Shown here piece by piece: positions 2,169 through 38,644 of a DNA stretch of 45,363 nucleotides (the stretch's first letter is position 1; every line of letters starts with the position of its first letter). Origin of the DNA: Atractiella rhizophila (lineage: Eukaryota); NCBI GenBank assembly GCA_021432655.1, contig MU271429.1, positions 21,339 through 66,701 on the forward strand, written 5' to 3'. The notes under the pieces were generated by a model that saw only the letters and a program-made list of their open reading frames with translations, had not been told where the DNA came from and ran no database searches. The translations under genes were made by a program, and so were the position numbers.

Positions 2169-2218
2169 AACGTGCTTACCGAGCTCTTCGCTTTTGCAAG
2201 GTTCCGGTATTCCAAGGT
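2169..2218 (+). pseudogene. Decayed fragment of the local kinase-like family
   Basis: cgtgcttaccgagctcttcgcttttgcaaggttccggtattccaagg matches 16526-16573 (RAYRTLRFLQGSGIPR) with a 1-nt deletion. Weaker echoes upstream at ~1768 (KPLAR vs KDPLVR) and ~1968 (EFWG). Confidence 0.65.
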
Positions 2219-2487
2219 GCAGAGAGTTTACCCGGTTGGGTATTTTCATTAGAAAAAGGCAGACTTATTTGTTTTCTGCTCGTCTCCTCCAAGTCTGTTG
2301 CTTCCTTCCTCGTGTTGGTGAGGAGCGATCAATGATGGCCGAAGGAAGGACTGAAAAGAGCAGCATCAACTCTATCTCTGCGCTAAAGGCTGCTGGTGCC
2401 TTGTAAGATATTTCAATTTTATCTTTGCAGTTCAATACCCATATTTTGCGCAACTAAGCTATACGTAGACTTCCATTGCACTTTGAT

Positions 2488-5951: not shown

Positions 5952-10068
<4,117 letters not shown>

Positions 10069-14384: not shown

Positions 14385-15063
14385 GGTGGTTGTATGGAAA
14401 TGATGAGGAGAGAACTGGGTACCACGAATCAAGGGTGCCAACCGCGTTGTTTATAGCTGCTCCCTCCGCTCCTTTCGCTTAGGTTGAGATGGTCCGTCGT
14501 GTTCACAGCAACGCAGCAACGTTTCTACGCTAATCAAAAGGACCACATTGGGATGGCATCACCTTTCATTGAGGTCATTCTCTCCTTCTTCTTTTTTTTT
14601 CCCTTCAAAGCATTCGTTTTCAAAGGGACCTTATTTGGGGCATCTTACTCTTTGTTTGATTGTTCTTGGTTATGCTACCTACTGCTTTCTCGAGTCAGCT
14701 TGGGTTCGCTGTACAATTGGATTTGACGAATTTAGGGAATGATGTGCAACCCTTTATGGTTATTCCTTTTGCTATCCACTTTATATTTGTGTTGATTGGG
14801 TACCAAACGTGGCAAAGCCGTCCAGTATTCAAGTTGCGCCACTCGCCCGTATGTTTCGTTTTCAATCTCTTCTTGTTTTGTCATAACCTAGTCTGGTCTA
14901 TCTAATCCTTTGTCGCACGATACGCTCCTTTATCATAAACCGACTGCCAGCTACTACCGTCGTTTCTGCAATCGAGACTATCTGCGTGACTGCTCTGTTT
15001 CCCATCAGGGCCTTTGTGCTTCGTACTACGCCGCAAACTTGCTGAGCCTCTGAAATGGCTCAG

Positions 15064-17236
15064 ATGCGACTGCAAGCTCTTCTCACCCCAACGTTTTTTA
15101 TCCCTCTTGGGAACGATGAGAGCACACAAGTCCCTCGACTCCTCTTTCAGGACGTTTGCGAACCTCATGCCAAATCTCAGTCCTTGATTACGTGCGAGCA
15201 ATACTTCCCGCGAAGACCAACAGATAAATTTTTTGATGTTTGCTATGGTGATCACCTGAAGAAAGATATCGAACTCCTTCCTTCAACCGTGCTCGCTCCT
15301 TTCTGGCCCGAAATTATGTTATATGGAGAGGTGCAACAGTGAGATCGTGCTCGTTCATCACTTGTACTCTTGCTGATCGCGCCTGCAGTAACTCTCGCCT
15401 TTCGTCCGTTTTGATTGATATGCAGACTTTCTTGAAGTATATGTATCCTTCACGAGCATCAGGTCCACTATCCATTCATGTCTCTCACCGGAAGTGCTCC
15501 TCAAATGGATGTCGGAGCGAAAATGTCGATCTCATAAGCTTACAGCTCGATGATGAAGTTCTCGCTCTCCTAGTTATCTTGGTTCGTGCAGTATCAACGG
15601 CCCGCAGATTACATACTAAATCTGAATGCAGGAGACGCCAGGCACGATTTGTGAGGAAGACTGGAAAAGTCCCACGTCTTCGCCCATAGATTTTGGGGAT
15701 ACTTCCAAGGTAGCAGGGAACTACCTGGCTTTCCTTCAATCTCTCGGTATCACTGGGTTGAACTATGCCGCTTTCCTCGATTTCAAGTCAACAGTCATCG
15801 TCAACATCTCCCGGTTCTTTTCTTGCGTCTCATTTGAGGATGGACCATATCTTCCCACGCTGACCCTTCTCAGCGAGGTGTTTTCTCGACGATGGGACTG
15901 CTCAAAATTTTCCCACCAGACTGGCGAAGCATCTTTCCCACGAGTCCTCGTATCCGGCGCAGGAAGAAATCCAAACGAAAGGCTGCAGGTGGATCTCAGC
16001 GCAATATCAATGGCAGCTGACCTGGACCTTTATGATGCTCAGAACGATAACGGTCCGATTCTGGGCGCCATGGCAAATTGGCACAATAGCCGGCTCAGAA
16101 AAGGCCAGGTTTGGCTCGACGCGCTCCGTTTACCAGGCCACGAGCTTCGAGTTGTTTCTGTGATTTCCGCTTATACCACCAGTTCAGAATCATTAATCCC
16201 GCCTCTGCTTATGACCGCGAAAGACCCGCTAGTGAGATTTTTTCAAAACATACTCTTCCAAGCGACTTCCGCCGTTCGACCCTCTACTGAAAGTTTTTCA
16301 CTCCGTCCAGGAGACTCGATTTTTCTCGAGAGCTCTTTACGTTCCGGACGAGAATTTTGGGGCCAAACCTTTGAAGTAAGGGTTTCGCCGTTGGGAGCGC
16401 AGAGGTTAGTCTTGAAGATTTACGATGAGCGTCTCTTCCCTCGTCCAGCATGGGAGATGGGCTATGACCGGATTTTACGCATAAGACGATGGCCGAATGC
16501 AGAAGATTCGTGGCAGCGCGAAGAACGTGCTTACCGAACTCTTCGCTTCTTGCAAGGATCTGGCATTCCAAGGTCGTACGGTTTCTACCGTGTAAGCTTG
16601 TTTTCATCGAGAGGAGCTTTTAATAGACCTTTTACAAACAGATTCAGCTTCCAGATGGCGAAATGGTGGCAGCTCACCTCTTGGAATATGTGGAAGGTTC
16701 ACACCTTGATGATACCTTGCTCAATGACCTGTCTGAAAAGGAACAGCAGAATTTCGTGAGTTTTCTAGTTGATGCTCACTCGACATTTACTCATCTCAAA
16801 TCAGTTCAATAAAGGAATGGCTTTGATGGGTGCAATGTTTCTCCTTGGTGTCAACCACACAGATCTTCAAGACCGTCCCGATCAGATCATATGTCTTCCT
16901 TCCGCCTGCCCTGGCAGTGCACCCAATTTGGTGCTCATCGATTTCGGGATGAGCAATTTGGTTCCAATAGATGAGAGCTGGCTGCTGTCCGACTGGGCGT
17001 GGGACCTGTCTATCTCGGAGGACTCTCGCTGCATGAATCAAATGCTCAATGAACAACTTGGCTGGACTCTGCCGGATGACAAGGACAAGCATCCAGAGGT
17101 TTTTTTAGATCACACGTGGGAGATTTTGCTGAGAGAGCGAAAATTCGGTATTCTTGATGTGAACTGGGACGAGGAAAAAAGGGCTAGACAAGGTGATGTA
17201 GAAATGGCTCAGGCAAGTCCCAAACGTCTCAGCTGA
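15064..17236 (+). CDS. Kinase-like family copy 1 (657 aa; possible REase-like N-terminus plus atypical protein kinase-like domain)
   Basis: Exons 15064-15338, 15389-15581, 15632-16591, 16642-16755 and 16805-17236 join in frame through canonical introns. Kinase motifs: LRSGREFWGQTF, LVLKIY, REERAY..L..LQGSGIPRSYG, LLEYVEG, HTDLQDRPDQII, LIDFGMS. Confidence 0.85.
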
Positions 17237-17552
17237 ACTACTCTAGTCGCATATACTTCGGTATTAAATTAGGAGCTACAAAATATATCTGAACTTGGCG
17301 GTGTTGGGTTTGCATAGTTTCGTGCCACCAAGTGGTAAAGTTTCTTACTTTCCTTGAATGCCATCCACTACTTTTACTTGCCACTCTTGTAGATTAGATA
17401 AAGAATTCCACTCGGTGGTGCTCACGCGTTTGCAACAGCTCAGCGAAACGGACCCCGCATTCTGACGATGACCCTTGAAGTATGTGTTATCTTCTCCCAA
17501 ATATTGTCTTGCACTGCGCCGAACTGTCCAGCTTTATGACTGCTTATTGCAA

Positions 17553-18640
17553 TTGAGCATTAGGGAAGCGTTCAAGTTACTATCTCAACTCCAAAGCTTC
17601 GCTAGAGTTGACGCGCTGTTGTGCTTCCAACGTGAGTTTCAATCTAGTTACTAGGGCTTGAAGGAGCAGTCAAGAGAGAAGAGTCATTTCGACAATCTAC
17701 GCTTTTGTTGCAAGGCACGCTTCCTGGTACAAAGATTCAGGAACTGAAGGTTTACCGTTGTCACGATGATACCAGCTGTTCCGTTTGACGGTGACACTGC
17801 ACCGTGACCTGGAGGACCATCTCACGAACGTCGGCGAGGCACGCGAAGGTACCATCCGTTTCCAGGCATGGCTGATGTTCCATATATGATTCCAGGATAT
17901 TAGCAGAACTGCAGTCTATGTTAGGCGTATTCTATTTTTTCACAGTGGAAATGGGAGCTCGCCATGGTGATGCTACATTTTGGCTGCCTGCATTATTCTT
18001 CCTCTCTTCATCATTTCTTGAACAATTTGTCAAATGGTCATGTGATGTTCACTTTTCTCAAAAATGTGAATTCCTAAACTACTTATTGTATCCTTCTTAT
18101 TGCATACTTGAGCATTAGGGACGTTCAAGTTACTATCTCAACTCCAAAGCTTCGCTAGAGTTGACGCGCTGTTGTGCTTCCAACGTGAGTTTCAATCTAG
18201 TTACTAGTGCTTGAAGGAGCAGTCAAGAGAGAAGAGTCATTTCGACAATCTACGCTTTTGTTGCAAGGCACGCTTCCTGGTACAAAGATTCAGGAACTGA
18301 AGGTTTACCGTTGTCACGATGATACCAGCTGTTCCGTTTGACGGTGACACTGCACCGTGACCTGGAGGACCATCTCACGAACGTCGGCGAGGCACGCGAA
18401 GGTACCATCCGTTTCCAGGCATGGCTGATGTTCCATATATGATTCCAGGATATTAGCACGAACTGCAGTCTATGTTAGGCGTATTCTATTTTTTCACAGT
18501 GGAAATGGGAGCTCGCCATGGTGATGCTACATTTTTGGCTGCCTGCATTATTCTTCCTCTCTTCATCTACCTTCATTCTTTGTCAACAATTTGTCAAATG
18601 GTGGGCATGACTTGTATGTTCACTTTTCTGCCAAAAAATG
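17553..18640. repeat. Near-perfect tandem duplication, period 553 bp
   Basis: For example, ttcgacaatc at 17688 and 18241. The cores are almost identical. The junction at ~18010-18110 is a deletion-riddled version of 18560-18700. Confidence 0.9.
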
Positions 18641-19010
18641 GCTGAGATGTCCTCCGAGGATCTGACCTTTGTAAGTATCACTTCCAATAACATTACTTGG
18701 ATTCACCGGCACTGTGACGTCGATATCTTTGTAATAGGCTAGCAGGTTCTTTGTTCAGACCTTAATGTTACTCCCCATGCAGAAGTGCAGTCTTTGTCAT
18801 CTGCACAAAAGGCAGCATTCTTATTTTTGTTAACGAAGCAATGGCGTGGAGAGTTATATGTTCTTATACTCACTGACCTGTTGCCTTATCTGGGCACCGG
18901 ATCCGGAGCGTCGCTTCTTCTGGCGGTCTACTTCGCCGTTTTTCGTCTCTTTTGGTCCTGTTCTTACGTGGATCTTTAAAAGCACAAGAGCAACGGAGAA
19001 CTATAGGATG

Positions 19011-21153
19011 ATGCGGCTTCCTGCCTTTCTCAAACCGGCCTTTCGTATGCATGCCAACCCTACCAAAAGTCCGCCTCTCCTACAGGATGTTTCTGGAGAA
19101 CCTCACACTCTGTCGAAGTCGCTGTTCACCGGCGCGCAATTTGTGCCCACGAGAGAGACGGACAAGTTCATGAAGGTTTCATATCGTGATCACCTACGAA
19201 AAGACCTTGAGCTGCTGCCTCTGAATGTGGTTGTCCCATTTTGGCCGGAGATCCTGATTGATGGCGAAGTTCTGCCGTAAGACCAATGGTTCCTCTCCCG
19301 TCTCACTGACCGTGTTGAGTAGGGAATCTCCTCTTTCTGCGTTTTTGCTCGATATGACGACGCTATTGAGGTATATGTACCAGCGAGGGCATCTACACCA
19401 CTTTCCATCCACGTTAAGCATCAGACCTGTTTTGCCAATGGAGTCCGGACCCAGGATGTGGAGATTGTGAGCGTACAAATAGAGAAGGAGATATTGGCAG
19501 TTTTTGTCATCTTAGTAGGTGTTGTGTAACGGTTTGTAGGCTATACTAACATGGAGAATAGGAAACTCCAGGCACTCTCCGTGAACAAGACTGGGAGCCT
19601 CTCGCCCACTGCTCCATCGATTTTGCGGATACGTCACAAGTAGCAGGCAACTACTTAGCCTTTCTTGATTCCCTCGGCATTTCCGACCTCAACTTTGCAG
19701 CTTTCCTCGATTTCACATCTACCATCGTCGTCAACATCTCTAAGTCTTTCTCTTACGTCTCTTTTGAGGAAGGAGCCTATCTTCCGGCATTGACGCTTCT
19801 GAGTGAGGTCTTTTCTAAACGATGGGACTGCTCAAAGTTTTCACATCAGACTGGGGCATCGTCCTTTCCCCGAGTTCTTGTGTCTGGAGCGGAAAGAAAT
19901 CCCAATGAGGAGCACGATGTGGATTTGAGCACAATAACGCTGGCTGCTGACCTGGATCTTTATGACGCTCAAAATGACGATGGTACCATCCTTGATGCGA
20001 TTGCAGATTGGCACAATGATCGCCTCAATAAGGCTCGACTTTGGCTCGATGACCTCCGGTTACCAGGTCATGAGCTTCGAGTTATTTCTGTGATTTCTTT
20101 GTGCCTTCCCAGCGCAATATCGTCCATTCCACCTCTACTCATGACCGCGAAAGACCCGCTAGTCCGATTTTTTCAAAATATCCTTTTTCAAGCGGCGTCC
20201 GCCGTTCGACCATCCGTCCAGACTTTCTCACTCTGCCCAGGAGATTCTATTTGTCTCAAACGTTCTTTACGGTCGGGACAGAAATTTTGGGGACAAGTTT
20301 TTGAGGCAAAGGTTCACGCCGTGGAAGCCCAAAAACTGGTTTTGAAGATTTATGACGAACGCCTCTTCCCTCCTCCGGCGTGGGAGATGGATTACGAGGG
20401 CATTTTACGGATTAGGCGATGGCCGAACGCAGAAGATTCGTGGCAGCGCGAAGAAAGAGCATATCATGCTCTACGCTTTCTGCAAGGTTCTGGCGTTCCA
20501 AGATCCTACGGCTTTTACCGAGTGAGTTCTTTATCGTCGGAGCTGACTTTTTGATTATCTTCTACAATCAGATTCAGCTTCCCGATGGCGAAATTGTGGC
20601 GGCTCACCTCATGGAATATGTGGAAGGTCCACACCTCGACGACACTTGGGTCAGGGACCTGTCCGAAGAAGAACAGCAGAACTTTGTGAGCGCAGGTCTA
20701 TTGTGCGTTGATCATCATTTCATTAACCTCAAGCAGTTCAACAAAGGGATGGCGTTGATGGGAGCCATGTTTCTCCTCGGAGTGAACCACACAGATCTTG
20801 ACGACCGACCTGACCAAATCATCTGCCCTCCTTCTTCCACCCCAGGTGCTTCCCCTGATTTTGTGATCCTCGACTTTGGGATGAGCAATCTGGTTCAAAT
20901 GGATGAAAGCTATCTTGCCTCTGTGTTGGCATGGGATCTTACCATCTCCATCGATTCCAATTACATCAATCGAATGCTCAATGACCAACTTGGCTGGAAC
21001 CTGGTACATCATCAGGAAACACACCCAGAAGTGTTTTTGCGCTTTACGTGGGAGATTCTGGTGAGGGATCGAAAGTTCGGCATTCTGGATGTGAACTGGG
21101 ACGAAGAAAAAGGCTTTTCCCATCATCCAAACGCATCAACTACCAGCCAGTGA
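19011..21153 (+). pseudogene. Kinase-like family copy 2, with a 1-nt frameshift near 19380 (real or sequencing error)
   Basis: Same 5-exon layout as copy 1. Exon 2 reads TATATGTAC CAGCG where the paralogs read YMYP(A/S)RA. Restoring one C gives YMYPARASTPLSIHV and an otherwise open gene. Confidence 0.75.
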
Positions 21154-21428
21154 TGACATCCTTTGACCTAGAACTCACTTTTATTCACGTTAGATGCAAT
21201 GTGATTAAGCAAGACATTTCACAATCAGCACTCGAAGAGTTTATGGACGGTGAACGACTATATGATTATGCGGACCTAATGTTTCATAAAATACAATGCT
21301 TTATGCACGAACCGGCATTCATAAAAGGTCAGTCAAACGGTGGCTATGGTAACTCCTAAAACTTGTGCTCAAAAGGATCAAAATCGAAATTAAGACGAAA
21401 CGGACTAAGACTCCCTCGCCATCTAAAG

Positions 21429-24400
21429 TTACGTGGTGAGGTAGATTTTCTGGACATCTGCTACCCCAAAGGCGACTTGACAGCCTGGACATTTCCGTTG
21501 TCTCGTCTCTATACGGGCGTCTATGCATTCTTTGCAGAAGGTGTGGAAACATCGCGTGATGACATGCGACTTGAAACGTTCGTTGCAGCTCGAACATTTT
21601 AAGAGTTTCTGTTCCCCTTGTAATCAGCACCCAAACTCATCAAGTTTGAAGGAAGGAAGGCGGACCTGAAGGTGCTGCGTTGTTTCCCGTAATTGCCCCA
21701 GCTCTGCGTCCAGCGCCCCATTCCCGTTCACGAATTGGGATTTTATCACGGATTGCTGTTGTGCTGCTGAACGCAACTTTTGAAGGCGAATGATATCCTC
21801 TTCAAGTTTCCTCCTCTCCCGCTGCTCTGCTGAACGACTCTCCAGCAACTGACGGTTCGACAACTCCAGCTACACCCATCGATACCATAGTCAGTCTGAG
21901 GCCGCCTCGACAAGAAAGACGGTATTGAGCTTCACGAACCTCATTGACCTTCTTCTGCGCGACCTCCTCCTTCCTAGTCAAATCTTGACTCTGCAGGGTG
22001 AGTTCTTCAAATCGAGACTGAAGAGTCCGGTACGCCACTCGCTGTTGATTAAGTTCCTGCTCGATATTTGTCTACCGACAACAATCAATAACATTCTTAA
22101 GACTGCAGCAGAATGGGGAAGGAGTACGAGAGATGCGCTGATAGTCTTGTTGCTCTCTAAGGTCGACTCGACTGCCTTTTGCTGCTTGTCCGTCAACCGA
22201 TTTAGCACTTGATTCTCCCCCTGAAGAGCTTCCTTCGCACGCATCGCAGCAAAATATCGATTATCGGCCTTTGCTTTCTATGCACAGCCAAAGCTATCAG
22301 CACATCCTTCTCCACCACAAGACATGACGACAGACCTCTGTGAGCAGTTTAGCGACCTTCTCCTCCAATCCAACAAGGGTGAAGACTTTATTCGAGCACT
22401 GCTCATCGAGCGTCTGCCAGGCAGCCGAGAGTCGATCAACTTCTCCATAAAGCATGGATGTCGAAGCCTCCTGCGTCTTAAGCTGAGCCTCCAGGATGCG
22501 GACTCTTCGATCCCTCTCCTCCACCCTCTCCTTCAACTGTTTGACCTCCACACTTGCGGCATCGCCAACCAACGCCTGCAACCGCTCCAGCTGCTCCTTG
22601 ACCTCTCGAAGTTCCATCCTCGCCTTCTCCTCGCTCTGCATGATGGTTTGGACGTTCAAGAGGCCGGAGTTCTGCGAGTAGCTCTTCAGTTGGTCCCGAA
22701 GGGTGAGCGCGAGAGATTCGGCACGCTTCAGTCGGCCCTCCAGGTCCTTCATCGCGTCCAGCTCCTCGTCTGCATACGTCTCCACGAGCTCCGTCTCCCC
22801 ATTGTTCGCAAGGATACGCATCTTCAGTCGTTTGACCTCCGAAGCATACGCCGCCAGCCGGTCCTATATCACCGGTACGGTGAGACCCAGATCATGGAGG
22901 AGGAGAGTGACGAGTGACACACCTTTTGTGAAAGAGCAAGAGTCTTCACCTGTTCCTGGTGCTTCATCTTCTCCGCTTCCCGCGCCTTCAACTCCGTCAG
23001 CTCCGACCTAAACTCCTCCCTCTGCCCTCGGACCCTCGTCAAGTCAGACTCTTTCGCGTTGAGCTTCTTTTGAGAGTCGTCCGTGATCGCATGTGCTTCT
23101 TTCTACATCACAATGCAACAACTCAGCCTTGGAAGGGGATTGGGAGGGATGGGACCGGGCGACGAACGATGACATCCTCGCGGAACCGTTGTTGCTGTTC
23201 CCTCATCTTTGCGTTCTCGCCACGCAGTTCCTCTGCCTCCTTTTTGGCGCGTTCACTGTCGGCTTTGAGGAAGGAAAGGTGGGCGTGAAGCTGTCGATAG
23301 TGTAGGGATTCCTGCACAGTGTCTTCGGGAAGGTCGACGAGCTGTTCCCTCCGGCGTTAGCCTGCATCCTATTAATACCACTGAGGAGACAAACGGAGAG
23401 CCTTAGGGATTGTAACTCGTTCTCGAGCATCACCTTCTCCCTTCGCACGTCCTCAATCTCCCGCAGTCTCGCATCCGCAATCTCCCTCAACGCCTCCAGC
23501 TCTTCCTGTTCGTCCTTAGAAATATGTGCAATAACAGGTTTCACCTCATCGACCTAGAACAACAAACTTCACCATCCGCTCCTCACACACGAAGGAACCA
23601 ACCCACCTCCATCATCGTATCGTTCACCTTAACCTTCTCTTCCTCTTCCTTCCGCCCCTCCGCCCACCTCACGCTCGAGCTCTTCTCCCTCTCTCCCCGC
23701 TTCCATATCGCCCGACACCGTTCCCGTTCGCTCTCCCTCTCGTCGCGTAGGCGCTCAACATCTTCTTTGAGCACTTGCACGGCGGCGCGGAGGGAGGAGG
23801 ATTCGGAAACGAGGGTGGAACAGCGCGATTGCAGATCCTCCGTCGACGGTGGCGTCGGCGGATTCTGTCCTGGTGGAAGACAGCGTAGAAGACTTAGGGT
23901 CGAGGATTGTAAGGAAGATAGATGGGTTTGTAGGCTGGTTAAAGTGCTGGTGGGAAGTTCGAGGTCGACAAGGGAGGCGGAAAGATCTTAACAATCGAAC
24001 ACGACATGCATGTCACATGCCCTCCTTGGTACTGATGAGAGAAAGACACATACCTAGGATGGAATCTGAAGAGTGCGGGAGAGACTTCTGGTCACAGAGT
24101 ATCCGGACGTCTTCGACCAACTGTCCCATCGTCACCAACAGACATCAACACACGACTTCCTTTTCTAGACCGAGCAAAACGCAGGCTCTCAGAAAGCATG
24201 ACTATGTACCTTAGTCCAAAAGACTCCCACTGCAGCCGCACGACACCGTTCGTCCTCTAGCACTCGTTCGAGTTCCCTCTCTCTCTCCTCAGCCTGCAGA
24301 GCACGCAGCTTGTACTCTCCCATCTGCCTCCATATCGCTTCCTTCCGAAAAGACTGTTCATTGCCACATAATACAACATACCCTCAGTTCACCACTAACG

Positions 24401-24591
24401 GAATAGGTAGAAAAGAGAGAATAAGGAGGAGGCGAACGAACCTCGAGATCTGGCGCGTGCGTGGTCGCAATGCCATTTCCGTTGCCATTCGGGAGGGCAG
24501 AGTCAATAAACGGCTTCTTCGAAGGGCCTGGGCTGTACGTCTCAGGCGAGGGCGGGGCTTTGCGCTTGAGCGTGAGAGACTCTGCTGCCAT
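21429..24591 (-). CDS. BRE1: E3 ubiquitin-protein ligase Bre1 (histone H2B ubiquitylation), multi-exon
   Basis: N-terminal SFRKEAIWRQMGEYK, long coiled coils, KADNRYFAAMRAKEAL, and a C-terminal C3HC4 RING CSSCNERFKSHVITRCFHTFCKECIDARIETRQRKCPGC, ending QKIYLTT* at 21429. Not every internal splice site was verified. Confidence 0.93.
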
Positions 24592-24639
24592 CTTCACTTA
24601 ACTCAGTTGGTGGTGTGAGGAGATTTTCGGCAACTGCTG

Positions 24640-24651
24640 CCCTAACCCTAA
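24640..24651. promoter_or_regulatory. Telo-box-like (CCCTAA)2 upstream of BRE1
   Basis: ccctaaccctaa lies ~50 nt upstream of the BRE1 ATG. Confidence 0.3.
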
Positions 24652-26883
24652 TTGCCCACTACTCACTGCAATCGCTACGACCAACGATTATCTGGCTGCC
24701 ATAATAACCACCCAGTGGTTGCGCCTACGACCTACTCACGAGTCTTAGAATCCGCAAAAACACCCTTACCAGCCTTCTCATTTCTCCAAAAGCGCACTCT
24801 CAAAAGGAACGACGTCAAAGTCAAGAACAACAGATTGGGGAGAAAGGCTGGATTGATCACTCTCAACGACGATCCCATTATCGTAGACAAATTCAAAGGT
24901 CAGAGGTGTTGGCAGCGTTATTCGTCTGATTGGAGAAGCGTCTGAGGTATTTGGAGCTAAGAAGTAGAGGTTGAGTGATATTCTACTCCGGATAAACAAC
25001 TCGATCTGTTGGTGAGCACTTCCTTCTTTCTATCTGGAATTGTTTGAGATGGACTTTTCTGTCTGTTTTGTGGCGTATTATGCGCGATTTCAGTGTTCCA
25101 AGCGCCTTTATCGCCCTTTTGAAGCACAACTGATTACCCGGTTGTTGTTGCCATTTTGTCCTTTCACTGACTTTCTACCTTATGTCCTCGCGCCGTGGTT
25201 TCTACCGTGAGCATGAGGACTTAGCTATCACAGTCCTGGGTGATAACTGCAAATGTTCTTGGATCTCTAAAAGGGAGCCCAGACGGCATCGTCATACCTT
25301 GCATACCTGGAGCTCAAGCATTGAAAAGTTACATTGAAAAGTTACGTTGGTTCTAGGTCTAGAATCTCTGAATATTTTTTTGTACAACTTCGAGTACGGC
25401 CTTTGCAGTAATGTGGACTCTATGTTCGATTATGCAGCGGATTTTATCACTTGCCATGTTCTATACTCTTGTGTTATTATTCCGCAAGCACCTTGCTGCT
25501 TTGCAGCCGTTGAATGAGCAGTCGCTGAATGAGCTGCTGCTTAAAGGAGATTTCGTCTTCCATTTGTCTTCGCCTCCATCCAAGGATGTCTGGCACCCAC
25601 TCCTGCTGTGGAACCTAAGAAATATATGGGCATATCTCCAAGGGACAACATGAAGCCGCCATTCGAGATTCTACACCGCAATCCACATCTTAAGTCGAGC
25701 CGTCTGAAGCGATTGGCTAGACTCGACGCGTAGAGCGGAAGGGTATGATCTTGGATTATGGTTCTGTGTTCTGTTGCTCAGCTCCGCACGCTTACCTCGG
25801 ATATAGAGTGTGCGTGTGGCGGTATCTTCCGCATGGACGTACTGTCTTGTCGTCCTGCCAGACTCCTTTCTTTAGAACGACCACAACTTATCATCCCTCT
25901 CTTTCAGGCAAAAGAGCCTTTTCTCTAGCTTTGCGTATTCTCAGCTTTCGAAGCTCCCTCATGTTCCTATCTTTGCTCTCCTTTCAATCTCGGTGGTCTG
26001 AACGTAGTGAGCACTATTAGCCTTCGCAGGTCCAGGTCCGTTACTTCTCTCGTTGGCATCTGTTCCTCTATCTGGATAGTTTCTTTCTCGAGCTGTCCCA
26101 CCTCTCCGCTCTGACTGCTCAGGCGATAACACGGCGTGTGGGCTCCTCCTGTGAGCTTCTCACAGGGATACCTCATGTATCTGTGGCATTCTGTTCGTCT
26201 TCACAACGGACCGCAGAGATACATGGGGCATGGGGAGTCGGGCTGAACGTTAACTCGATCGAACATTCTTTCGGTGCCGTCGGTTTCCATGTAGGAAGGA
26301 ATGAATTCACGGTCCCCGCTCCCAGCTCCTCACCATTGTCCTCTTCCTTTCATGAACGTTTTCATCAGTAGCCATAGCTGCTATCTCTTTCTGCTACTTA
26401 TCCTGCGGTTTGGTATCGGCGCTGGATGTGAGTCACGTCTACATGCGTGTCGCGCCATCAAAACGCCAGAGCGGCGCCATCTGTTCTTAGAAGCGGAGCG
26501 TCAGATTCCGTGTGCTTTCGCGACCCATTGTCATAGCGCGCATTTCGTAGCCCCTATCTTGCGTCTACATCTGGGAGTTCTGCGGAGGAAAGAAACTGAC
26601 GATTCCGTCGAAGGATAGGTTTCTTGAATTCTTTTCACTCGTTCCTCGAACCAAGCAAGAGAAATCGATATCAATAGGCAATCCCTTCGATACCCAACCA
26701 ACCTCCACCCAAGGTTAACGAACGATTGAACGCAACAATCTTCTCGGCAGTTTCGGATTCAAGTTCACTTCACTTTTCTCAGTCATTTTCGAACATTTTA
26801 GAAGTTATCTGGGCACATTATTTATTTAGATGTTTTCGTTTCCTGGGAGTGCCGTTGGAAGCAGGAAGAGAAAGAGAGGGGAG

Positions 26884-29800
26884 ATGGAAAGGGATCAGAG
26901 AGAGTTGAGCATAGAGGTGGAGAGGAGGCAGGTCGCGCCGCCCGGTCAGACATTGCCACCTTGGTACTCGTGGGTCTGCCCTTTGCGTTTCTAGGAGATG
27001 AGCTAACATAAATGAAGTATCACCACGATCCCCGTAGTCTCCACTATCGATGGAGATCCGACCATTGTTGGCTCATCAACGATCATGTATGAGTTGCCCG
27101 CGCTTTACACGGGCGAGGGATCTGTAGCGCTTGGTTGGCCGTATACCACAGCTTTCCCCGCCGATCCTAGCGCGGGCATCGTGGTCAGCATCGTCGGTGG
27201 GACTCAGGGTCTTGTTACCATTGGTGGACCAAGCGGCTTCGGTGCTTCCCCAGTTGTTCCAACGCCAACTCCCGGTACTCCTGGCTCTCCTGGTACCGCT
27301 ACGCCTCCTGGCTCTTCCCCGGTACAGGGAACAGCTACCACCAGTTTTACAACAGGCACGTCTCCAACGACTACGACTTCTGCATCCTCTACGACGACAA
27401 CAGGAGAAGGAGGCTCCCTCCAGCCTTCTGGAAAGTCGGTGTCGTTATCAGGAGGCCAAATTGCAGGCATCGTTGTCGGTTCTTTCTTTTTCCTCCTTCT
27501 CCTCGTCGCCCTTTTCCTCTTCATCATGTACCGTCGCCGACGGCGTCGGAACCAGCGGCTGGCTCAAGCGCACAGCACGACGGATTGGGAGTTCGTGCGC
27601 TCCCCAGAGACGAACGCCCCTCCACCGCCTGGCGCCGTCATCCCAGACCGCGGACCTTACGGGGATGTGGAAAGCGAGGGCGAGGTGAGGGAGGGAAATG
27701 CTTTGATCAGCGCTATGGGAGGAGCTGGGGGGTTGGCGGGTCTTGCGAGTCGGAGCAGGGAGATGATGAGTAGGTTGAGCAATCGGGGAGGAAGCTCGAC
27801 TATTCGGCCAAGCGAGGATCGACCGGATTCGAGAAATATCTTTCCTAGTCAAGACCAGGGACAAGATGCTACCGAGGTATTAGGGACTGAGGCAACTCGA
27901 GCTGGGGAGAGGCAGGGACTGCTAGGGCAGGAAAGCGATCATCGATCAGCATCTAGCGGGGACATCGGGACCGTTGTAGCTGGAGTAGGGCTCGGCTTTG
28001 GAGTGCTAGGCGGTACGTTTAGGGGAGAAGACAGTTTGGGCTCTAGTTCAGGGTCGGGTGCCGGAAGAGGCTATGATACTCCAATGACTGGACGTGGTAC
28101 TGGCTCAGGCAGTGAGAGGATGGCAAGTGGAGCAGGCAGCTTGTCGACGTCGAATGAGGGGTCGAGGAATACTCGTGGAACACGCCAAACTAGTGGGTCG
28201 AGTAATCCGTCAGGCTCTGGTTCGGGAAGTGGGAGAGGTGGTGGAGGCGGCCCTGCAGGTAACTCAAGCAGTGGAGAAAGCCCTTCCGTGAACTCTGACG
28301 ACCTCTTTTATTCTCGACCACCTTCAAATCCCTCAGGAGGACGTGGTGCTGGACCTTCGAGCGGCGACCGGCAGTATGGTTGGAATTTAAGAGATGTTGG
28401 AAGAGCTGCAGCTGCAACGGTTGGGTTGGGTGCCCTGGTAAACGCAAAAGGTCGAGACTCTGATGCCTCCTCACCCGAGTCCAACGTTGATGGCCCTTCT
28501 GGCCGCTCGGAGATGTCTCGACCTTCGTTTCAGACAGCTCCAACTGGCCCATCCACCGATCAATCTGTTTATGGGACCGCGACCAGCGGAACTGCGACGC
28601 CAGCCGGAGCTTATCAGTCCGTGGACACATTGAATCCTCAATCCACCGCAAACCGCTCAAGTTCTTCCCTCACTGGTGCTGTCCGTCAAGGTTCTGCGTA
28701 TTCTTCGACATATGGAATGCCAGATGTTTATGCATCCGGAAGCATTGATACGAGTGTCCCAAGTCAAGAAACGCCCGCTTCCTCTCTCCATACCCCTACC
28801 ACCACGGCAGCCAATTCACCTCAACGTGTTCCCTCATCGAGTCCATCATCCGGCAGTGCAGGTTTAACCTCTCGGCGCGAAAACTACCTCCCGCCTATCT
28901 TCACAGGCCGTCGAACAAGCACGATAGCTGAAGAGTCAGAAAGTTTGTACTCCTCAGAGATGAAACGACGCAGCGGAACAGGCTCAGAGTCTCACTCGAC
29001 GATGCGTCCTGTCAGTGTTGGATCCACGTCAAGCGCGAAAGAAGGGATCGGTGGAGTTCTGGCGGGATTGGGTATCAGACTCTTCGGTGCTCAGCGAAAG
29101 GGCACATCGTCACCACGGGAGACGCTCATGGAAGAGAAGGAACCAGAAATGGATGAAAAGCTGGATCCTGAGTCAGAGGAGTCGTCGTGCGTCTTATTCA
29201 TTCTGTTTCTGTGACTGGGGCTAAGCGTACAGCAGATCGAGTCGACATCCGATCCTTCGAGATAATCCACGTTATCGACCAGTTACTACGACCGCTACAG
29301 GTTTTGAGTCCTCTTCGCTGACGGAGCTGGGCAAAATTGCAACTCCCGGCGAAGGGGAAATCGATCCAATCTCAGCGAGCACTCGCACATCCTTCTCGCA
29401 TTCCCAACCCTCTTTACACGCTAATTCCCCAAGTCAATCGGTTCACTCACGACGGTCTTCTGAGGACCGTCGAGAACCCAGCGATTCCTCCACAGATCTC
29501 GCGCGCCGCACACGCTGGTCCAAGGCAACGATGGGCCAGTCCATTCCACCGTCCCCAAGGCCATCTACTGGACATACACTCGACCGTTCCCTTTCTGTCA
29601 CTTCTTCCCTTCATCCAGGATCCCGCAACGTTTCCGAATATGGCGTACTGTCGAGGACACATTCAGCAGGGCAAAATTCTCGGAAAGAAGCCTCGCACTC
29701 ATCTTCTGGAGGAAAAGGTAGCTCGGGGAGAAACGACAGCCACAACTCGTCCAGTTCAAGCGAGCCAGGCTTGAGTCGGCGGCATAGTCACAAAACAGTC

Positions 29801-29908
29801 CCCATCCTGGAAGAGTCTGACGTAGTCCCAAGTCCTGTGGATCTTCAGGTTCCCACATCAAGCAAAATAGAGCAGGAAGCCAACGTTTCGGGAGCTCCCG
29901 CGTCATAA
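26884..29908 (+). CDS. Single-pass membrane protein (~974 aa) with Thr/Pro/Gly-rich ectodomain and long Ser/Gly-rich disordered tail
   Basis: Exons 26884-26963, 27018-29186 and 29233-29908 join in phase 2. TM helix LSGGQIAGIVVGSFFFLLLLVALFLFIMY followed by RRRRRR, typical of fungal Mid2/SKG6-like TM segments. The start codon is tentative. Confidence 0.8.
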
Positions 29909-30140
29909 CACTGTGACTACGATTAGCCAAGTGGACACTGAGCATTTAGTTTCTAGCAGATTGGAGTCGTGACTGAAAATCATTGTGAAAGGACGTATTT
30001 CGATATTCTTCAACGGACTCTTTGAGTGCTTGTGACTTAGTTGCCGATTATGAAAAGTCTTGCTTCATTACATTCCCATCCCAGACATGTACAGGGACGC
30101 GACGAATGAGTTCTAGTGGAGACTGAAAAAAGCTCATTGC

Positions 30141-32252
30141 TTACCACCCCTTCTCTGCATCCCAGTTCACATCCAGAATCCCAAATTTTCGTTTTCTCAG
30201 CAAAATCTGCCACGTGTACCGTAACAAAACTTCAGGGTGCTTTTCGTCATCATCAACCAAGGTCCAACCAAGTCGTTCAATGAGCATCCGATTGATATAT
30301 TCGGAATCCACCGAAATATTAAGATTCCACCCCAACACGGATGTGAGGTAGCTCTCATCCATCTGCACCAGATTACTCATTCCAAAGTCGATGAGCACGA
30401 AATCCGGCGCAACACCTAGGAGGGAAGAAGGAGGGCAGATGATTTGATCTGGTCGATCGTTGAGATCTGTGTGTGTAACGCCTAGGAGAAACATTGCCCC
30501 CATCAACGCCATTCCTTTGTTGAACTGCTCCAGGTTAGTAACTTCAAATGGCGGAAAGAATATCAACACACAAAGTTCTGCTGTTCTTCTTCTGACAGGT
30601 CCCTAACCCAAGTTTCGTCGAGGTGCGGACCTTCGACATATTCCATGAGGTGAGCCGCCACAATTTCGCCATCAGGAAGCTGAATCTGATTGTAGAAGAT
30701 AATGAAAAAGTCAGCTCCGACGAAAAAGAACTCACCCGGTAAAAACCGTAGGATCTTGGAACACCAGAACCTTGCAGAAAGCGGAGGGCATGATAAGCTC
30801 TTTCTTCGCGCTGCCACGAATCTTCTGCGTTCGGCCATCGCCTAATCCGTAAAATACCGTCATAGTCCATCTCCCACGCCGGAGGAGGGAAGAGGCGTTC
30901 GTCATAAATCTTCAAAACCAGTTTTTGGGCTTCCAAAGCGTGAATCTTTACCTCAAAAACTTGTCCCCAAAATTCTTGTCCTGACCGTAAAGAGCTTTCT
31001 AGAAAAATTGAATCTCCTGGATGTATCGAGGTCGTCTGGGCTGAGGGCCGAAGGGCAGACGACGCTTGATAAAGGATATTTTGAAAAAATCGAACTAGCG
31101 GGTCCTTCGCGGTCATAAGCAGAGGTGGGATGGACGAAATTGAACTGGGGAGGCAAGGGGAAATCACAGAAATAACTCGAAGCTCATGACCTGGTAACTG
31201 GAGCTCATCTAGCCACACCTGAGCTTTGTCGAGGCGATCATTATGCCAATCTGCAATCGCATCAAGGATGGGACCATCGTCGTTTTGAGCATCATAAAGG
31301 TCTAGGTCAGCAGCCAGCGTAATCGTGCTTAAATCCACGTCGTGCTCTTCGTTCGGATCCCTCTCAGCGCCAGACACGAGGACTCGTGGGAAAGAAGCTT
31401 CACCAGTCTCATGCGAAAATTGAGAGCAATCCCATCGACGAGAGAAAATCTCACTCAGGAGTGTCAACGCAGGGAGATAAGGTCGATGGTCGAAAGAGAC
31501 GTAAGAGACATATTTAGAGACATTGAGTGTGACAGTAGACTTGAAATCAAGGAATGCGGCATAATTGAGCTCAGCAATGTCAAGTGATTGGAGAAATGCT
31601 AAGTAGTTCCCGGCAATTTGGGAGGTATCCTCAAAGTCGATCGATGAAAACGTGGCACCTTTCCAGTCTTCCTCTCGCAGTGTGCCTGGGGTCTAGGTCT
31701 ATGTGAGTATTTCCCGTCGGTCTTGAAACATGTACCAACCAGAACAACCAGAACAGCTAAGACTTCCTCCTCCATTTGGATTCGCAGAACATCGATCTCC
31801 TGGGTTCTCACTCCGTGTGAAGAACACATCTGGTGGGAAATGTGGATGGAAAGAGGTGCGGATGCTCTTGCAGGGTACATATACGTCAAGAAGTTTTTGA
31901 GGTCGAGCAAAAATGATGAAAGACAGGTTTCGCTACCATAGGTGATCAGCGAGGTGGGGGACAGCAAAAAGGAGTAGCTTCACGGTTGCACATCTCCATG
32001 AACCAAGATATCCGGCCAAAACGGCACAGTCACATTCAAAGGCAGCACCTCAAGGTCTTTTCGAAGATGATCATAATACGAAACCTTGATAAATTTGTCC
32101 GTCTTTCTTGTAGGTTTGAACTGAGCGCTTGTCACCAACGATTTGCACAAGGCATGCGGCCCCTTGGAGACATCCTGAAGGAGCAGTGGTGGAGTTCCAC
32201 CCCGGTCAGAAGGGACATGGAAGCTTGGTGTGAGAAAGGCGAAAAGCCGCAT
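30141..32252 (-). CDS. Kinase-like family copy 3
   Basis: Same 5 exons in frame: MRLFAFLTP..., YMYPARA, TPG, LVLKIYDERLFP, HTDLNDRPDQII, LIDFGMS. It lacks the Glu codon at the start of exon 3. Confidence 0.85.
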
Positions 32253-35200
32253 TATCGGATAAACCTCGATTTGCAGCTGCAGCTAGTAAACAGTTCAACG
32301 CGGGACCATACGAAAAGGATAAATATGCGTGGCACACTTCCATGGCCATTAACCTTTCCCAGTGAAAGAAGCAACTACCAACAACCATTTTTCTCACGCG
32401 GATATGAAAGGGACATGTTGGACAATTAGAAATTACGTTGCGGAGAAGAGGAACGAACACGTAGGCCTCCTTTCCTTTAGAAGTGAATCTGGCGGTGCAA
32501 GAATATCATAGTCAGGTGACAATGCTTGGAATGATACTTACGAAGGATCATAATTGATTCGGATTGAACCATGAAGTGCATGACAGTTTTTGAGTAGCAG
32601 ACAAAGGCGGGCGGTTGTTATTCGTCGAAGCAAAAGTCAACAAAGAGTGAGACCAGGCGGAACAAAGAAACGATAGGAAGGAATAGAAAGGAAGACATAG
32701 GTGCAGGTGCCTACAATTGTGGAAGAGTAGCCAAAGGGATCATTTTTAGGCGTCACATGAAGGATCAAAAAAGATATCATTCATTGCAAAGCAGACAAAG
32801 GAATATCGCTATGTGCGAGGTTGTTTACCATTTCTGTGAGAAAGGATGACGCATGAAGGAATACAGAAAGGCGGGAATAATAGAAACAAAGAAAGTGCTA
32901 CTTCAAGGTGGACGGCCAGAGATGGCACCATTTAGGAACTAATGTTAAGTGCGATGAAAGGCACCAGCCCTCTGACTAGCAGACAAGGCTCTGCTAGAAA
33001 CCTTGACAAAGCAGAGAAAGAAAGGGAAAATAGGCGACAGACGACTGTAAAAGTGGGAAAGTACTAGTACTTCGATGATTTTGGTGGTCGCATTCTCAAC
33101 ACGAATAAATCACGATGTCAAAAATCACAAGCTCCAGCTTTCGTATGGTCGTCCGAACTATCGACGGAAGGAAAGGACCCAGAGGGAGAGGGCATCTGGG
33201 ACCCTGCACAACTGACGAACTTCATCCCCAGAACGAAATTCTTAAACTCATTTACGCCGAATCCACGTTCATAATGCGAGATTAAAACGGATGAAGGAGA
33301 AACATGAAGCTCTGTCGCGAAATTCGGAGGATACGGAGGCTCTTTCCCCAGAGACGACCGTAAGGGCCTGCTAGTAATTTTCATCCGTCGGTACCGCTTA
33401 CTACTCGCAAGACTTGAATTCAGTGTTGCTTTCAGGAAATGTGATGGTATCAAATTACAGAACAGGTTGGACTTGACGTGTGTATTGCCCATGGCATCAA
33501 GACACAGTGTTGGGGATGTTGAAGGTAAATGCCCCCCCCCCCCGTCTAGATGGGCTTGGAAACCGGGGATCCCATCGCTACACATCCCAGGTCTGAGGCA
33601 GAAGCGATGTGAGCAATCCCTGCATCTCGCACTGCCTCTGAAACACAAATAAAGACATCATCACAGTGCGCACAAACATCCTCGAACGATATCTCTGGCA
33701 TAGAAGGCATGCTCCAGCAACAAGCGCCAATCAAGCTACCGTGACAGACACGTTCATCACCTTGGAATACCTCGTGAGGGTCAAAAGACCGTCCCGAGAA
33801 AAGGTTTACATAGAGTATAGAGGTCTCGGTATCCATGAACGAAATACGACAGCATAGGCGCTTCCAGCAAAGTCTAGAACATCTTTATGCCAACAAAGCA
33901 GTCAGCCTTAATAAGTCCGCCCTCCGTTCATCTAACTGCAGGACTTGTCTATGACATGCCTTAATTTCCATCGATGACTAGATGACATCAGTTCTAGCAT
34001 CGTAACCCAACACTGCAGTGGCAGGCACACACAAGCTGTTGGCGAGAAAGTTTGCGTTGTATACACTGTCTAACAACAAATGCCAACCGCCGAAAGCATC
34101 ATAGCGGCGGTTTCTAGATAGCTTGTTGCTTACTACGCTTGCTCTGATGGAGTCAAACAACAGCATCGCAAAGGGCTCACCTTCAAGCCAAATACACAAG
34201 TATATACGATGATAGCATCCTCTATGGATTACAGACGATCAAGGAATTTGTAGAAACAGCGGTGATTTGCAGACAACAAAACACGTCCAAAGAACCTCAA
34301 CATGCCCCTCGGATACGACTGAACTGTGAGACAACTCACCCGTGGATTAATACAATGACGTTCACCTTATAAATCACTAGCACCCTTTTGAACAAATGAT
34401 AAATGCCAGAAAGGTAACACGGCTATAACTGGCGCGAAGCTCGGCAAATTTGAGAGCGCACTGCTGTTCGGACGGGAGGTTGAAGGGATTATGTATGAGT
34501 GACAGAGTGCTGTGGTCTGTTGATGCATATGCCTGCACTCGCTTGCACTGGCGCGTGCTTTGTTGTTGTGATGATCGAGCTGTCAGTCAAGTTGTAGTTT
34601 AGTCTTTGCAAGCAGCGGCCGCGCAACATCACAATGCTACGGTATACAAGAGCAGGATATTTAGGGTATATACCTGTTCCTTAACGTGAGGAGAGTGCGC
34701 CTGCTCGTGGGGTGGATTGCACCAAGGCTTTCGTCCAAACAGGGCCGGATAGCCCGCTTAACAGGCAAGCCCCAACAGGCAAGACCCAACAGAAAGAAAG
34801 GGACATGGCCGTCACACCAAATGCTGCAGGGCTTCAGGGCAAAAGCAGTAATGCTTCTGACCTGCACCCAAAGTGAAGTGGCCAGCAGAGTTGGTGGGTT
34901 GCCAGAGGCACACTTTTTCCGGAGGACCCTTGTACTTTATGGCCCGATGTGGCATGCTACTGGGCATTGGGCATTTACTTTGTGATACATCGTGGCACGG
35001 AACATGAGTCTCTGAAGTAGACATTGGCATTTTGTGGAAGGGAGCAAGAAGCCCTGGAGGAATTTGGGCTTTGGTACTTTGTGACATGGAGCGACAAGCT
35101 CCGTCAGAAATTGGGCTTGGTACGACAAAAAGTGATGCTAGAGGATTGAGGCGATGTGCAGCCGAAGGTGGTGGTTGAGTTGAGGAGCTTGGCCGCCGCC

Positions 35201-35461
35201 TTCGACTCTCTTTCAGAGACGGCCTCGTCCAACGGCACAGTTCCTACCTTACTCTTCTGGAAATACAGCAGAAAACGTAGAACATTGATGTATCCTGTTA
35301 TTTCTGACAAAAAACGTCCTGAATCGTCACGATGAAATGGTAACTGTTTGTGGACTCTGAGTGATTGCTTGTAGCTTACAAGTAGTCGCTATAATGGAGC
35401 GGTCTTGTTGGTCATATTGCATCCAACACAAGTAGCAGGGAGAACAAGCGATCACTACCAC

Positions 35462-37582
35462 TTACGACAACCCCTTTTCTTCATCGCAGTGCACCTCCAG
35501 AATACCGAACTTGCGCTGTCGCAGCAGTATCTCCCACGTATAGTACAAACGCACCTCAGGGTGTTTTTCCTTATCATGGAGTAAGGTCCAACCAAGCTGT
35601 CGGTTGAGCATCCGGTTCATATGAATGGAATCTCTGGAGATGCTGAGATTCCATGCAAAGATAGATGTAAGGTAGCTTTCATCCATCTGAACCAGATTGC
35701 TCATCCCAAAGTCGATGAGCACGAAATCTGGAACGCGGTTTGGGGAGGAAGGCGGACAGATAATTTGATCTTGACGATCTTCAAGATCAGTATGGTTCAC
35801 GCCGAGGAGAAACATTGCTCCCATCAATGCCATGCCTTTGTTGAACTGTTTGGCTTAATGAAATGATGATCAACACAAAATAAACAGGAACCCACAAAGT
35901 CTTGCTGTTCTGCTTCAGAAAAGTCAGTAGCCCATGTTTCGTCAAGGTGTGGACCTTCTACGTATTCCATGAGGTGAGCCGCCACAATTTCGCCATCGGG
36001 AAGCTGAATCTGATTGTAGAAGATTAGAAGATAATTAAAAAGTCAGCTCCAACAAAGAAGAACTCACCCGGTAAAAGCCGTAGGACCTTGGAACGCCAGA
36101 ACCTTGCAGAAAGCGGAGTGCATGATAAGCTCTTTCTTCGCGCTGCCACGAATCTTCTGCATTTGGCCATCGCCTAATCCGTAAAATACCGTCGTAATCC
36201 ATCTCCCACGCCGGAGGAGGGAAGAGGCGTTCGTCATAAATCTTCAAAACCAGTTTTTGGGCTTCTAAAGCATGAACCTTTGCCTCAAAAACTTGTCCCC
36301 AAAATTTCTGTCCCGACCGTAAAGAATGTTCGAGACGAATAGAATCTCCTGGACAGAGAGAGACAATCTGGACTGAGGGTCGAACGGCAGAGGCAGCTTG
36401 GAAAAGGATATTCTGAAAGAATTGGACTAACTGGTCCTTCGTGGTCATGAGCAGAGGTGGAATGCATGACATTGCACTTGGGAGGCAAGGCGAAATCACG
36501 GAAATAACTCGAAGCTCATGGCCTGGTAACTGGAGCTCATCGAGCCACAGTTGAGCCTTGTCGAGGCGATCATTGTGCCAACCTGCAATTGCATCAAGAA
36601 TGGGACCATCGTCGTTCTGAGCATCGTAAAGGTCTAGGTCGGCAGCCACCAGTATTCCACTGAGATCCACGTCATGCTCTTCATTTGGATCTCTTCCGGC
36701 GCCAGACACGAGAACACGGGGGAAACATGCTTCCCCAGTCTGATGTGAAAATTTCGAACAGTCCCATCGCTCAGAAAAGACCTCACTTAGAAGTGTCAGC
36801 ACAGGAAGGTAAGGACCTTCCTCAAAAGAGACGGAAGAGAAAGATTCAGAGATGTTGACTATGACTGTAGATTTGAAATCGAGGAAAGCCGCGAAGTTGA
36901 GCTGAGTAATGTCTAGTGAGTCGAGAAAGGCCAAGTAGTTCCCTGCTATTCCTGACGTATCATCAAAATCTATGAACGAGTATGTGCGACCTCCCCAGTC
37001 TTGCTGACGAAGTGTACCCGGAGTCTCCTAATATCTGAGTTAGGACCGACCCTTAATCTTCAAGCGATACCAACCAAGATAACAAGAGCCGCCAGCACCT
37101 CCTCCATCATTTTCAAGAGCAATATATTCACATCCTGCGTCCGGACTCCATCCGCAAAACAAGTTCGGTGGGTAACGTGGATGGAAAGTGGAGCTGGTGC
37201 TCTCGCAGGGTACATATACTTCAAGAATGTCGTCAAATCAAACAAGAAAGCTGAAAGACGAGATTCTCTGCTTGAGCTCATCAGTGGCACAGCAGATCAA
37301 CGAGTAGTCGTCTTACGGATGCACATCCCCCTGAATCAAGATCTCCGGCCAAAATGGAACAACAACATTCAACGGTAGCAGCTCAAGGTCCTTTCGTAGG
37401 TGATCACGATATGAAACCTTAATCGACTTGTCTGTCTCTCTAGTAGGTATAAATTGAGCGCTCGTGAACAGCGACTTTGATAGAGTGTGAGGTTTTCCAG
37501 AAACATCCTGAAGGAGAGGTGGGCTTCCGGTGGGATTGGAGTAGACAGCAAATGTTGGTGTGAGAAAGGCGGGAAGCCGCAT
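35462..37582 (-). CDS. Kinase-like family copy 4
   Basis: Same 5 exons in frame: MRLPAFLTP..., LVILETPG, LVLKIYDERLFP, HTDLEDRQDQII, LIDFGMS. Confidence 0.85.
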
Positions 37583-38644
37583 CGTTGCTTGCAGCCAGAT
37601 GCGTTGCTCAAACAGGACACAGGATGGGGCGAAATGAAGAAGGGCTGTATAGACTGTTATAAGAAGCTATGTGGTGAAATTAGCATCTGGACAACGGAGC
37701 AGATCAGTCAGGCTCGGTCAAAGAACAACAAAGATAAGAACACATACATTCTTCACCCTTTATTTCGCTACAAAGGCTGTCCCGGTGGCAGTCTGGGACA
37801 GTAGTCAAAGAGGTTCATTAAAGTGTGGAAATCGGAACTAAGAGCTTTATGCAGAAGACTTTCGTGCGTGGAGTACAGTGTCGTAATGGACATCACATTC
37901 GGCAGCAAAAAAATAAGGCTATTTAAAACAAAGAACCCCGAGGAACTAATACAAAGGGATATCTGAACTCTGTTACTTACAAAGGGCTACAGTTGGTTAA
38001 ATAAACGGCATGAACGTAGCATGGCAAGAGAATAGGGGGTATAATGACTCTGTATCCAAGATTGAAATGAGTTAGTCCATCTACCAATTTTAGGCGGCCC
38101 TCAAACAAGCGAAACCATAAGATGGCGGTCCTCAGTCATGTTCAGCATGTGCAATATTGTTTTTACGAATCAGCAAAGAATTTGCGGGAACGACCACCCG
38201 TTCCAGACAAGAAATAACAGTGACGCTTGCTCCACAGCTCCATCACATGCAACTGAACCACGCGACAACTCACCTGAAGATTACTATGCTGTAGTGAAGT
38301 AGTCAATTCCTGGGTCCCTCTCCAGCTGATCATTAGCTATTCCAAACTTCCGTTCGGTCCACCGGAGAGGCGCTGAAGAAAGTTGTGTGGAAGAACCGCA
38401 ATATACTTGTTGCCAACAAGCAGCAAATGTCTGTGCTGACGCTGACAACACGAATGTCGATTGTTCTGAATTTCGCACGTGCGTGCACCGTTCGAAACTT
38501 TATTTTATTGGATGCATGCAAACTGCTACACGATTTGAAAGGTACCCTGACCACGTAACAAATTCGGTCTTAGCTGCTCAGTAATAGTACCATTGAGCCA
38601 GAATGAGCTCAATCGATTAATATATTCGCCATATACAGGTTAGA

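Follow-up and report, generated by a model that had tools for sequence, protein, structure and literature searches.

A probable pseudo-nuclease and kinase gene family in the fungus Atractiella rhizophila

What kind of protein joins a kinase-like C-terminal half to an N-terminal half that recalls a nuclease, and what would a fungus do with several of them? The question is raised by four paralogous genes in a 45,363-nucleotide (nt) stretch of contig MU271429.1, hereafter the window, from Atractiella rhizophila, a basidiomycete of endophytic habit. Our preferred answer, to which we give slightly better than even chances, is that these genes encode intracellular atypical kinases placed behind a catalytically dead restriction endonuclease (REase)-fold module, and that they descend from a nuclease-kinase toxin/antidote ancestor.

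Nucleotide self-comparison of the window and alignment of the four genes revealed 71-81% nucleotide identity over 1.6-2.1 kb, and 69-81% identity between the proteins. Each copy has five exons, separated by four GT-AG introns (46-58 nt) whose positions align and whose phases are 2, 0, 0, 0, as an earlier reading of this DNA from the letters alone (the sequence-only reading) had proposed, apart from the intron-2 acceptor of copy 3, which has moved by 3 nt. Copy 1 (15055..17236, + strand; exons 15055-15338, 15389-15581, 15632-16591, 16642-16755 and 16805-17236) is intact and encodes 657 amino acids (aa), or 660 aa with the NCBI start three codons earlier (ATG at 15055), in which form it is identical to NCBI model P0001. 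Copy 2 (19011..21153, +) is frameshifted by the lack of one base in exon 2 near 19382: spliced like copy 1 it contains 19 stops, and its frame is otherwise open when an X is placed at the break. Either this break is recent or the assembly is in error here. Copies 3 (30141..32252, - strand) and 4 (35462..37582, -) both yield open 638-aa models, the former with weak donors at introns 1 and 4. Because of the frameshift, open reading frames (ORFs) of about 650 aa exist for only three of the copies; the coordinates, strands and exons of the sequence-only reading stand, and its count of four such proteins does not. The splice models of copies 2-4 are based on homology only, and the NCBI models split or truncate these copies (P0046/P0158, P0016/P0159, P0007).

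The N-terminal domain of copy 1 (15235..15892, +, spanning introns 1 and 2) corresponds to residues 61-246, which an AlphaFold model arranges as a helix, three strands, a helix, three strands and a helix. When the domain was folded alone as the natural fragment P0014 (predicted local distance difference test score, pLDDT, 67 overall and mostly 76-93 in the core), the top five of 48,161 chains were all PD-(D/E)XK REases, with Z scores of 5.6-7.8: BpuSI (Z 7.8, root-mean-square deviation (rmsd) 3.8, 126 residues aligned), EcoR124I HsdR (Z 7.2, rmsd 4.2, 119 aligned), the Leptospirillum REase-domain protein 9y1l (Z 6.6), Vibrio vulnificus HsdR 3h1t (Z 6.1) and DrdV (Z 5.6). A V. vulnificus HsdR is also the best HHpred match of the Spok3 nuclease domain (PMC6660238). 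An independent model in the Atlas matched a cluster in which 11% of members are SPOK2_N (template modelling (TM) scores 0.46/0.55), along with HSDR_N, Uma2, MmeI and BpuSI clusters (TM 0.40-0.47), and SPOK2_N clusters reached an Atlas feature score of 0.90 with 152-158 of 256 features shared. Taken together, these models indicate that the domain probably adopts the PD-(D/E)XK fold, and the sequence-only proposal of a degenerate REase-like N-terminus gains support from independent structure searches, at modest Z. Several observations weigh against this assignment. All Z values fall below 8, a range that the search tool itself calls common, and the Atlas TM scores by query are below 0.5. With the N-domain model as query, no PDB chain reached E<=0.001 in Foldseek, the rows being driven by the frameshifted tail of P0014, and the Atractiella N-domains are only weakly linked to those of distant relatives (hhalign probability 61%, E 8e-5), the fold models being of the former. 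A match in BFVD at E 9.9e-4 was set aside as not meaningful (rmsd 17), and a DUF5898 protein found there at E 5e-3 (TM by query 0.32) is a lead only.

Whether such a domain could still cut DNA was examined in 38 N-terminal rows, 10 of the 48 available being dropped as too short. In copy 1 the positions of interest are D105 (15417), D142 (15528), strand 3 (15555-15634), N189 (15719) and D209 (15779). Strand 3 ends in hydrophobic residues followed by P-G, the family consensus there being hydrophobic-x-P-G, and a (D/E)xK motif at its end was seen in none of the 38 rows; at the expected catalytic columns, one row keeps a Glu and one a Lys. No Lys occurs within 151-166 in any of 10 Atractiella rows, and the isoelectric point of the domain is 4.7-5.0 in all six domains computed, unlike a typical DNA binder. 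The sequence-only reading had taken an ETP tripeptide for a converted ExK. Exon 3 opens with the codon for the E of that tripeptide, E160, a residue that copy 3 lacks as a result of its shifted intron-2 acceptor and that P0003, P0004, P0005 and P0009 lack as well, which argues against such a conversion; by hairpin geometry, with the spacing of type I enzymes, E160 would lie nearer the position of the Lys. In copies 1 and 4 the intron-2 acceptors (15629-15634 and 37025-37030) are of the NAGNAG type, and E160 could therefore be included or skipped by alternative splicing.

Judged from these residues, the N-domain looks catalytically dead. The opposing observation is that polar residues are kept at plausible positions in the Atractiella copies, which makes a variant active site possible: D105 is present in 8/8 rows, D/E142 in 7/9, D169 in 10/10 and N/Q189 in 10/10, and most rows carry acidic or amide residues that may stand for the helix-A Glu, strand-2 Asp and helix-B Gln, in a catalytic register that is itself predicted. 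Among PD-(D/E)XK enzymes, variant sites in which residues have shifted place or been substituted do exist.

The C-terminal domain is an atypical kinase (copy 1: 16139..17215, +, about residues 329-654). The AlphaFold model of P0001, built on 48 rows (pLDDT 77, predicted TM score 0.72), has a two-lobed kinase-like fold with the beta3 Lys (K421, 16415), alphaC Glu (E456, 16520), catalytic Asp (D537, 16862) and DFG motif (16940) all present. About residues 313-630 of this model match kinases, best YabT (Z 15.3, rmsd 3.3, 217 aligned) and then Rio and lanthipeptide kinases (Z 12-14); Foldseek also returned kinases, and the family profile matched DAPK/ULK at E ~1e-6. Structure searches of the two halves thus bear out the division drawn from the letters alone, with REases as the top chains for one and kinases for the other. 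K421 and E456 are kept in 46/48 rows (2 gaps), D537 and D563 in 44/48 (3 gaps, 1 other). On the other side, the catalytic-loop Asn, five residues after the Asp, is replaced by Gln in 38 of the 48 rows (Q544 in copy 1, 16883; Asn in 4, His in 2, a gap in 4), and in Atractiella this loop is extended by two residues; kinase activity, going by sequence and fold, is therefore likely and no more than that. The two halves are joined by a conserved helical linker (copy 1: 16016..16120, +, residues 288-322) with the family pattern FxDFDLYTxQR...W, of which D291 occurs in 42/48 rows and W309 in 43/48. Docking of the N-domain onto linker and kinase scored 0.00, in a run that used no alignment and an uncertain partner fold, and this score weighs neither for nor against contact between them.

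How widely is this architecture distributed? A profile search of 1.84 billion representatives (50% clusters) returned 377 matches at E<=0.001, and among the best 150 of these we found 30 further proteins of 520-720 aa. Twenty-nine of them were aligned, the tandem kinase P0063 being left out, and in these distant relatives, at 16-24% identity, the motifs follow one another as in copy 1. A sister class is formed by 14 shorter proteins, chosen by eye from the first 22 of 63, that have the kinase and lack the N-domain; some of them may be truncated predictions. A quickly built tree of 48 C-terminal regions separates 12 Atractiella-type rows (two placed by similarity) from all others with support 100, and members on other contigs are interspersed among those of the window. 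The A. rhizophila genome holds about 11 copies on 7 contigs, counting separately the near-identical P0002 and P0003, which may be alleles; the cluster described by the sequence-only reading is hence real, but the expansion is genome-wide and not merely local. Another contig (74,365 nt) carries at least two copies in pieces (P0014, P0008, P0157, P0002), and in P0002 part of the N-domain is repeated internally. None of 43 pattern matches in GTDB was confirmed as a prokaryotic relative. No Pfam family reached threshold for the four copies, whether searched as exons or full proteins (ABC1 at E 0.04-0.3), and NCBIfam and PADLOC gave only weak generic kinase matches. The literature searched held no description of the family, although the survey of Zhang et al. 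2016, which lay outside that search, may cover it. A group without a name so far, with 377 matches and with Atractiella members that no Pfam family captures at threshold, is thereby given an architecture and a candidate origin.

The pattern of substitution indicates that both halves are maintained, since the ratio of nonsynonymous to synonymous divergence (dN/dS) is low in all six pairs of copies: 0.13-0.18 overall and 0.09-0.20 over the REase-like domain. The pseudo-REase domain is under purifying selection, and no positive selection was seen, which weighs against the preferred reading. Copies 2 and 4 are the closest pair (81% identity, synonymous divergence (dS) 0.62), with copy 1 standing furthest from the rest (69-70%, dS 1.4-1.6); these distances rule out a single inverted block duplication as the source of the cluster. 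One segment of copy 2 (20293..20685, +; kinase N-lobe, intron 3 and exon 4) matches 30572-30964 in copy 3 and 35970-36296 in copy 4; over its roughly 390 nt, copies 2-4 are 92-97% identical, and intron 3 of copies 2 and 3 is 96% identical. With tract borders chosen from the data, the score was reached in 0, 1 and 0 of 2000 permutations of all polymorphic sites for the three pairs among copies 2-4, and in 82, 72 and 11 of 5000 permutations restricted to four-fold sites; pairs with copy 1 showed no such tract (63-701 of 2000; 1219-2950 of 5000). Gene conversion is the simplest cause and a probable one. The paralogs differ most in the N-module, and the ATP-binding lobe has been homogenised. These computations show a family turning over by duplication, probable conversion and decay, and the birth-and-death evolution suggested earlier is borne out by the broken copy 2, the relic described below, the fragments elsewhere and the conversion tract.

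Among known systems, the closest in architecture are the Spok proteins of Podospora and Fusarium, in which a PD-(D/E)XK-fold domain closest to HsdR precedes an atypical kinase (PMC6660238, PMC9972908, PMC12693581). In Spok, killing depends on a Lys of the nuclease and protection on the kinase, and alleles with a dead nuclease go on conferring resistance, according to the same three articles. Both families are multi-copy, with gene conversion and pseudogenes, and of the families named in the Atlas, SPOK2_N comes closest to the Atractiella proteins. Unlike Spok, however, the latter lack the catalytic Lys, a clear QxxxY motif and the cysteine cluster (the cysteine/histidine pattern before the kinase was found in 0/9 proteins); they have no evident coiled coil, residues 1-62 of the P0001 model being low in confidence (pLDDT<50) with short helices only, they carry four coding introns, and their host is a basidiomycete, whereas Spok homologues have been reported from ascomycetes (PMC6660238). 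Crinkler-related (CR) REase-kinase proteins such as PiCRN8 show the same domain order and lineage-specific expansion (PMC5289972), and the REase is regarded as the source of their toxicity (Zhang et al. 2016, summarised in PMC5289972). In the Atractiella family the REase is degenerate, there is no ubiquitin-like or LxLFLAK header, and no HVLV motif; by the definitions in PMC5289972, header and motif occur in 0/9 proteins. The family is thus built like the Spok and CR REase-kinases but lacks what sets these apart in published descriptions, and belongs to neither, because the header, the cysteine cluster and the killing Lys are absent. Wolbachia CidB likewise keeps inactive REase-fold domains ahead of a different catalytic domain, but with four REase units, a peptidase and a separate antidote gene (PMC11342252); the likeness is one of analogy only. 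A last comparison is with FunK1/Pkinase_fungal (PF17667), also lineage-expanded fungal atypical kinases, with weak Atlas feature similarity (0.85-0.88); PF17667 gave no Pfam match at E<=5 in 7/7 Atractiella proteins and a weak one in two kinase-only relatives.

Under the reading that we prefer, an ancestor with the nuclease-plus-kinase toxin/antidote architecture of Spok and CR proteins would have had its killing half disarmed and retained as an acidic binding or regulatory module. This pseudo-nuclease would most likely recognise a protein partner or control the kinase, which would then phosphorylate the partner or itself. The result would be a set of kinases with different partners in intracellular conflict, perhaps in self/non-self surveillance or in protection against related toxins; a divergent N-module next to a homogenised ATP lobe is as expected for such a set. 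The descent itself is inferred, from architecture and from published descriptions of Spok and CR proteins. A bolder version, which we advance tentatively and consider rather unlikely, is that in an old fungal family killers of Spok or Crinkler type have been disarmed and domesticated, the dead nuclease having become a variable domain that senses, or acts as decoy for, nuclease toxins or non-self proteins, and the kinase serving as antidote or cell-death switch. If true, basidiomycetes would possess a Spok-like conflict system, the first of its kind in that group, and with it a defence against killer drivers written into the genome.

An alternative that we regard as unlikely, though it survives better than the others, sees in these proteins antidote-only suppressors: the kinase of a nuclease-dead Spok-like relative would neutralise in trans an active nuclease-kinase toxin coming from the same genome, a partner nucleus or a competitor. 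Precedent comes from Spok3 K240A and a natural Spok2 allele, which resist without killing, and from resistance acting in trans (PMC6660238); multi-copy turnover with gene conversion also resembles Spok. With an intact (D/E)xK in 0/38 N-termini, however, no matching toxin is at hand, the cysteine cluster needed for Spok resistance is missing in 9/9 proteins, and the copies are evidently long-standing, to judge by a dS of 0.6-1.6 between them. Less probable again is a toxin that protects itself and is still active through a rearranged nuclease site, the acidic residues of which would come from helix A, strand 2 and the helix that follows strand 3, with the kinase as antidote as in Spok. The conserved D105, D/E142, D169 and N/Q189, the existence of variant PD-(D/E)XK sites and the purifying selection on the N-domain would all fit; the lack of a Lys near strand 3, the acidity of the domain, N142 in the intact copy 4 and the loss of the putative site residues in distant relatives, as aligned, argue otherwise. 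We think it somewhat more doubtful still that both halves are pseudo-enzymes and the proteins scaffolds or decoys, as the loop Gln, the two-residue insertion, a degenerate Gly-rich loop and the lack of a Pfam kinase family at threshold might suggest, given that K, E, D and the DFG Asp are near invariant across 16-24% identity and that four distant rows keep the Asn. Finally, secreted Crinkler-type effectors entering plant root cells are highly improbable: although the fungus is root-associated, REase-kinases make up about one sixth of CR C-termini (PMC5289972) and a mycorrhizal fungus employs Crinklers (PMC6131194), the LxLFLAK or HVLV motif is found in 0/9 proteins, the nuclease residues to which toxicity is linked are missing, residues 1-60 are unstructured in the model, and the four window copies show no strongly hydrophobic N-terminus or signal-peptide-like stretch, so that the Crinkler-effector label of the sequence-only reading is not supported.

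The preferred reading bears on two open questions, namely the means by which the kinase of Spok restrains the nuclease of the same protein and the reason for the large expansions of odd kinases in fungi. The family would separate kinase from nuclease activity, keeping the fold and losing the cutting residues, and should offer proteins that are not toxic and can be expressed for studies of structure and substrates. Should it prove to be no more than a private family of signalling kinases, its value is one of annotation.

Further traces of the family lie around the intact genes. A relic of a fifth copy (2169..2305, +; end of exon 3, intron 3 and start of exon 4) has its core in a 51-nt match at 2169-2218, 90% identical to copy 1 (E 2e-11), in agreement with the earlier mention of a relic near 2170, and reaches weakly to ~2305 over the intron-3 homologue (score 66-86 against shuffled maxima of 38-43 in 30 shuffles). 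The 3' flank of copy 2 (21154..21270, +) is homologous to those of copies 3 and 4: the scores for copies 2 and 3 and for copies 3 and 4 were reached by 0/200 shuffles and that for copies 2 and 4 by 8/200, and both motifs quoted in support of this homology by the sequence-only reading occur in copies 2 and 3. The 3' flank of copy 1 has nothing in common with these.

The remaining features of the window are of a more ordinary kind. BRE1 (approximately 21700-24400, -; domain in Pfam at E 8e-7, RING not found by a simple pattern search) had been placed at the centre of a ++/-- arrangement of the copies, but we saw no sign that this layout is meaningful, and nothing ties the family to BRE1. This gene, an alanyl-tRNA synthetase (approximately 5700-10000, +) and a single-pass Ser/Gly-rich membrane protein (approximately 27016-29908, +) are ordinary neighbours. 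A second paralog pair, 68% identical, lies on either side of the relic (62-1235 and 2488-4086, -), with a 532-aa intronless frame that looks F-box-like by eye and matches no Pfam family at threshold. A tandem 547-nt duplication (17540-18064 and 18093-18637, 95% identical), in the first unit of which no open frame was found, separates copies 1 and 2. The end of the window is occupied by an intact-looking non-long-terminal-repeat retrotransposon (41210-45363, +), which we take to be Tad1-like; its ORF1 encodes 664 aa with cysteine/histidine knuckles, and its ORF2, open to the window end, encodes an endonuclease (E 1e-13) and a reverse transcriptase (E 2e-17). Two same-direction arrays of a ~31-nt repeat with the core TTTGATCCAGCG, about 1.1 kb apart (38630-38880 and 39660-39960), sit between copy 4 and this element.

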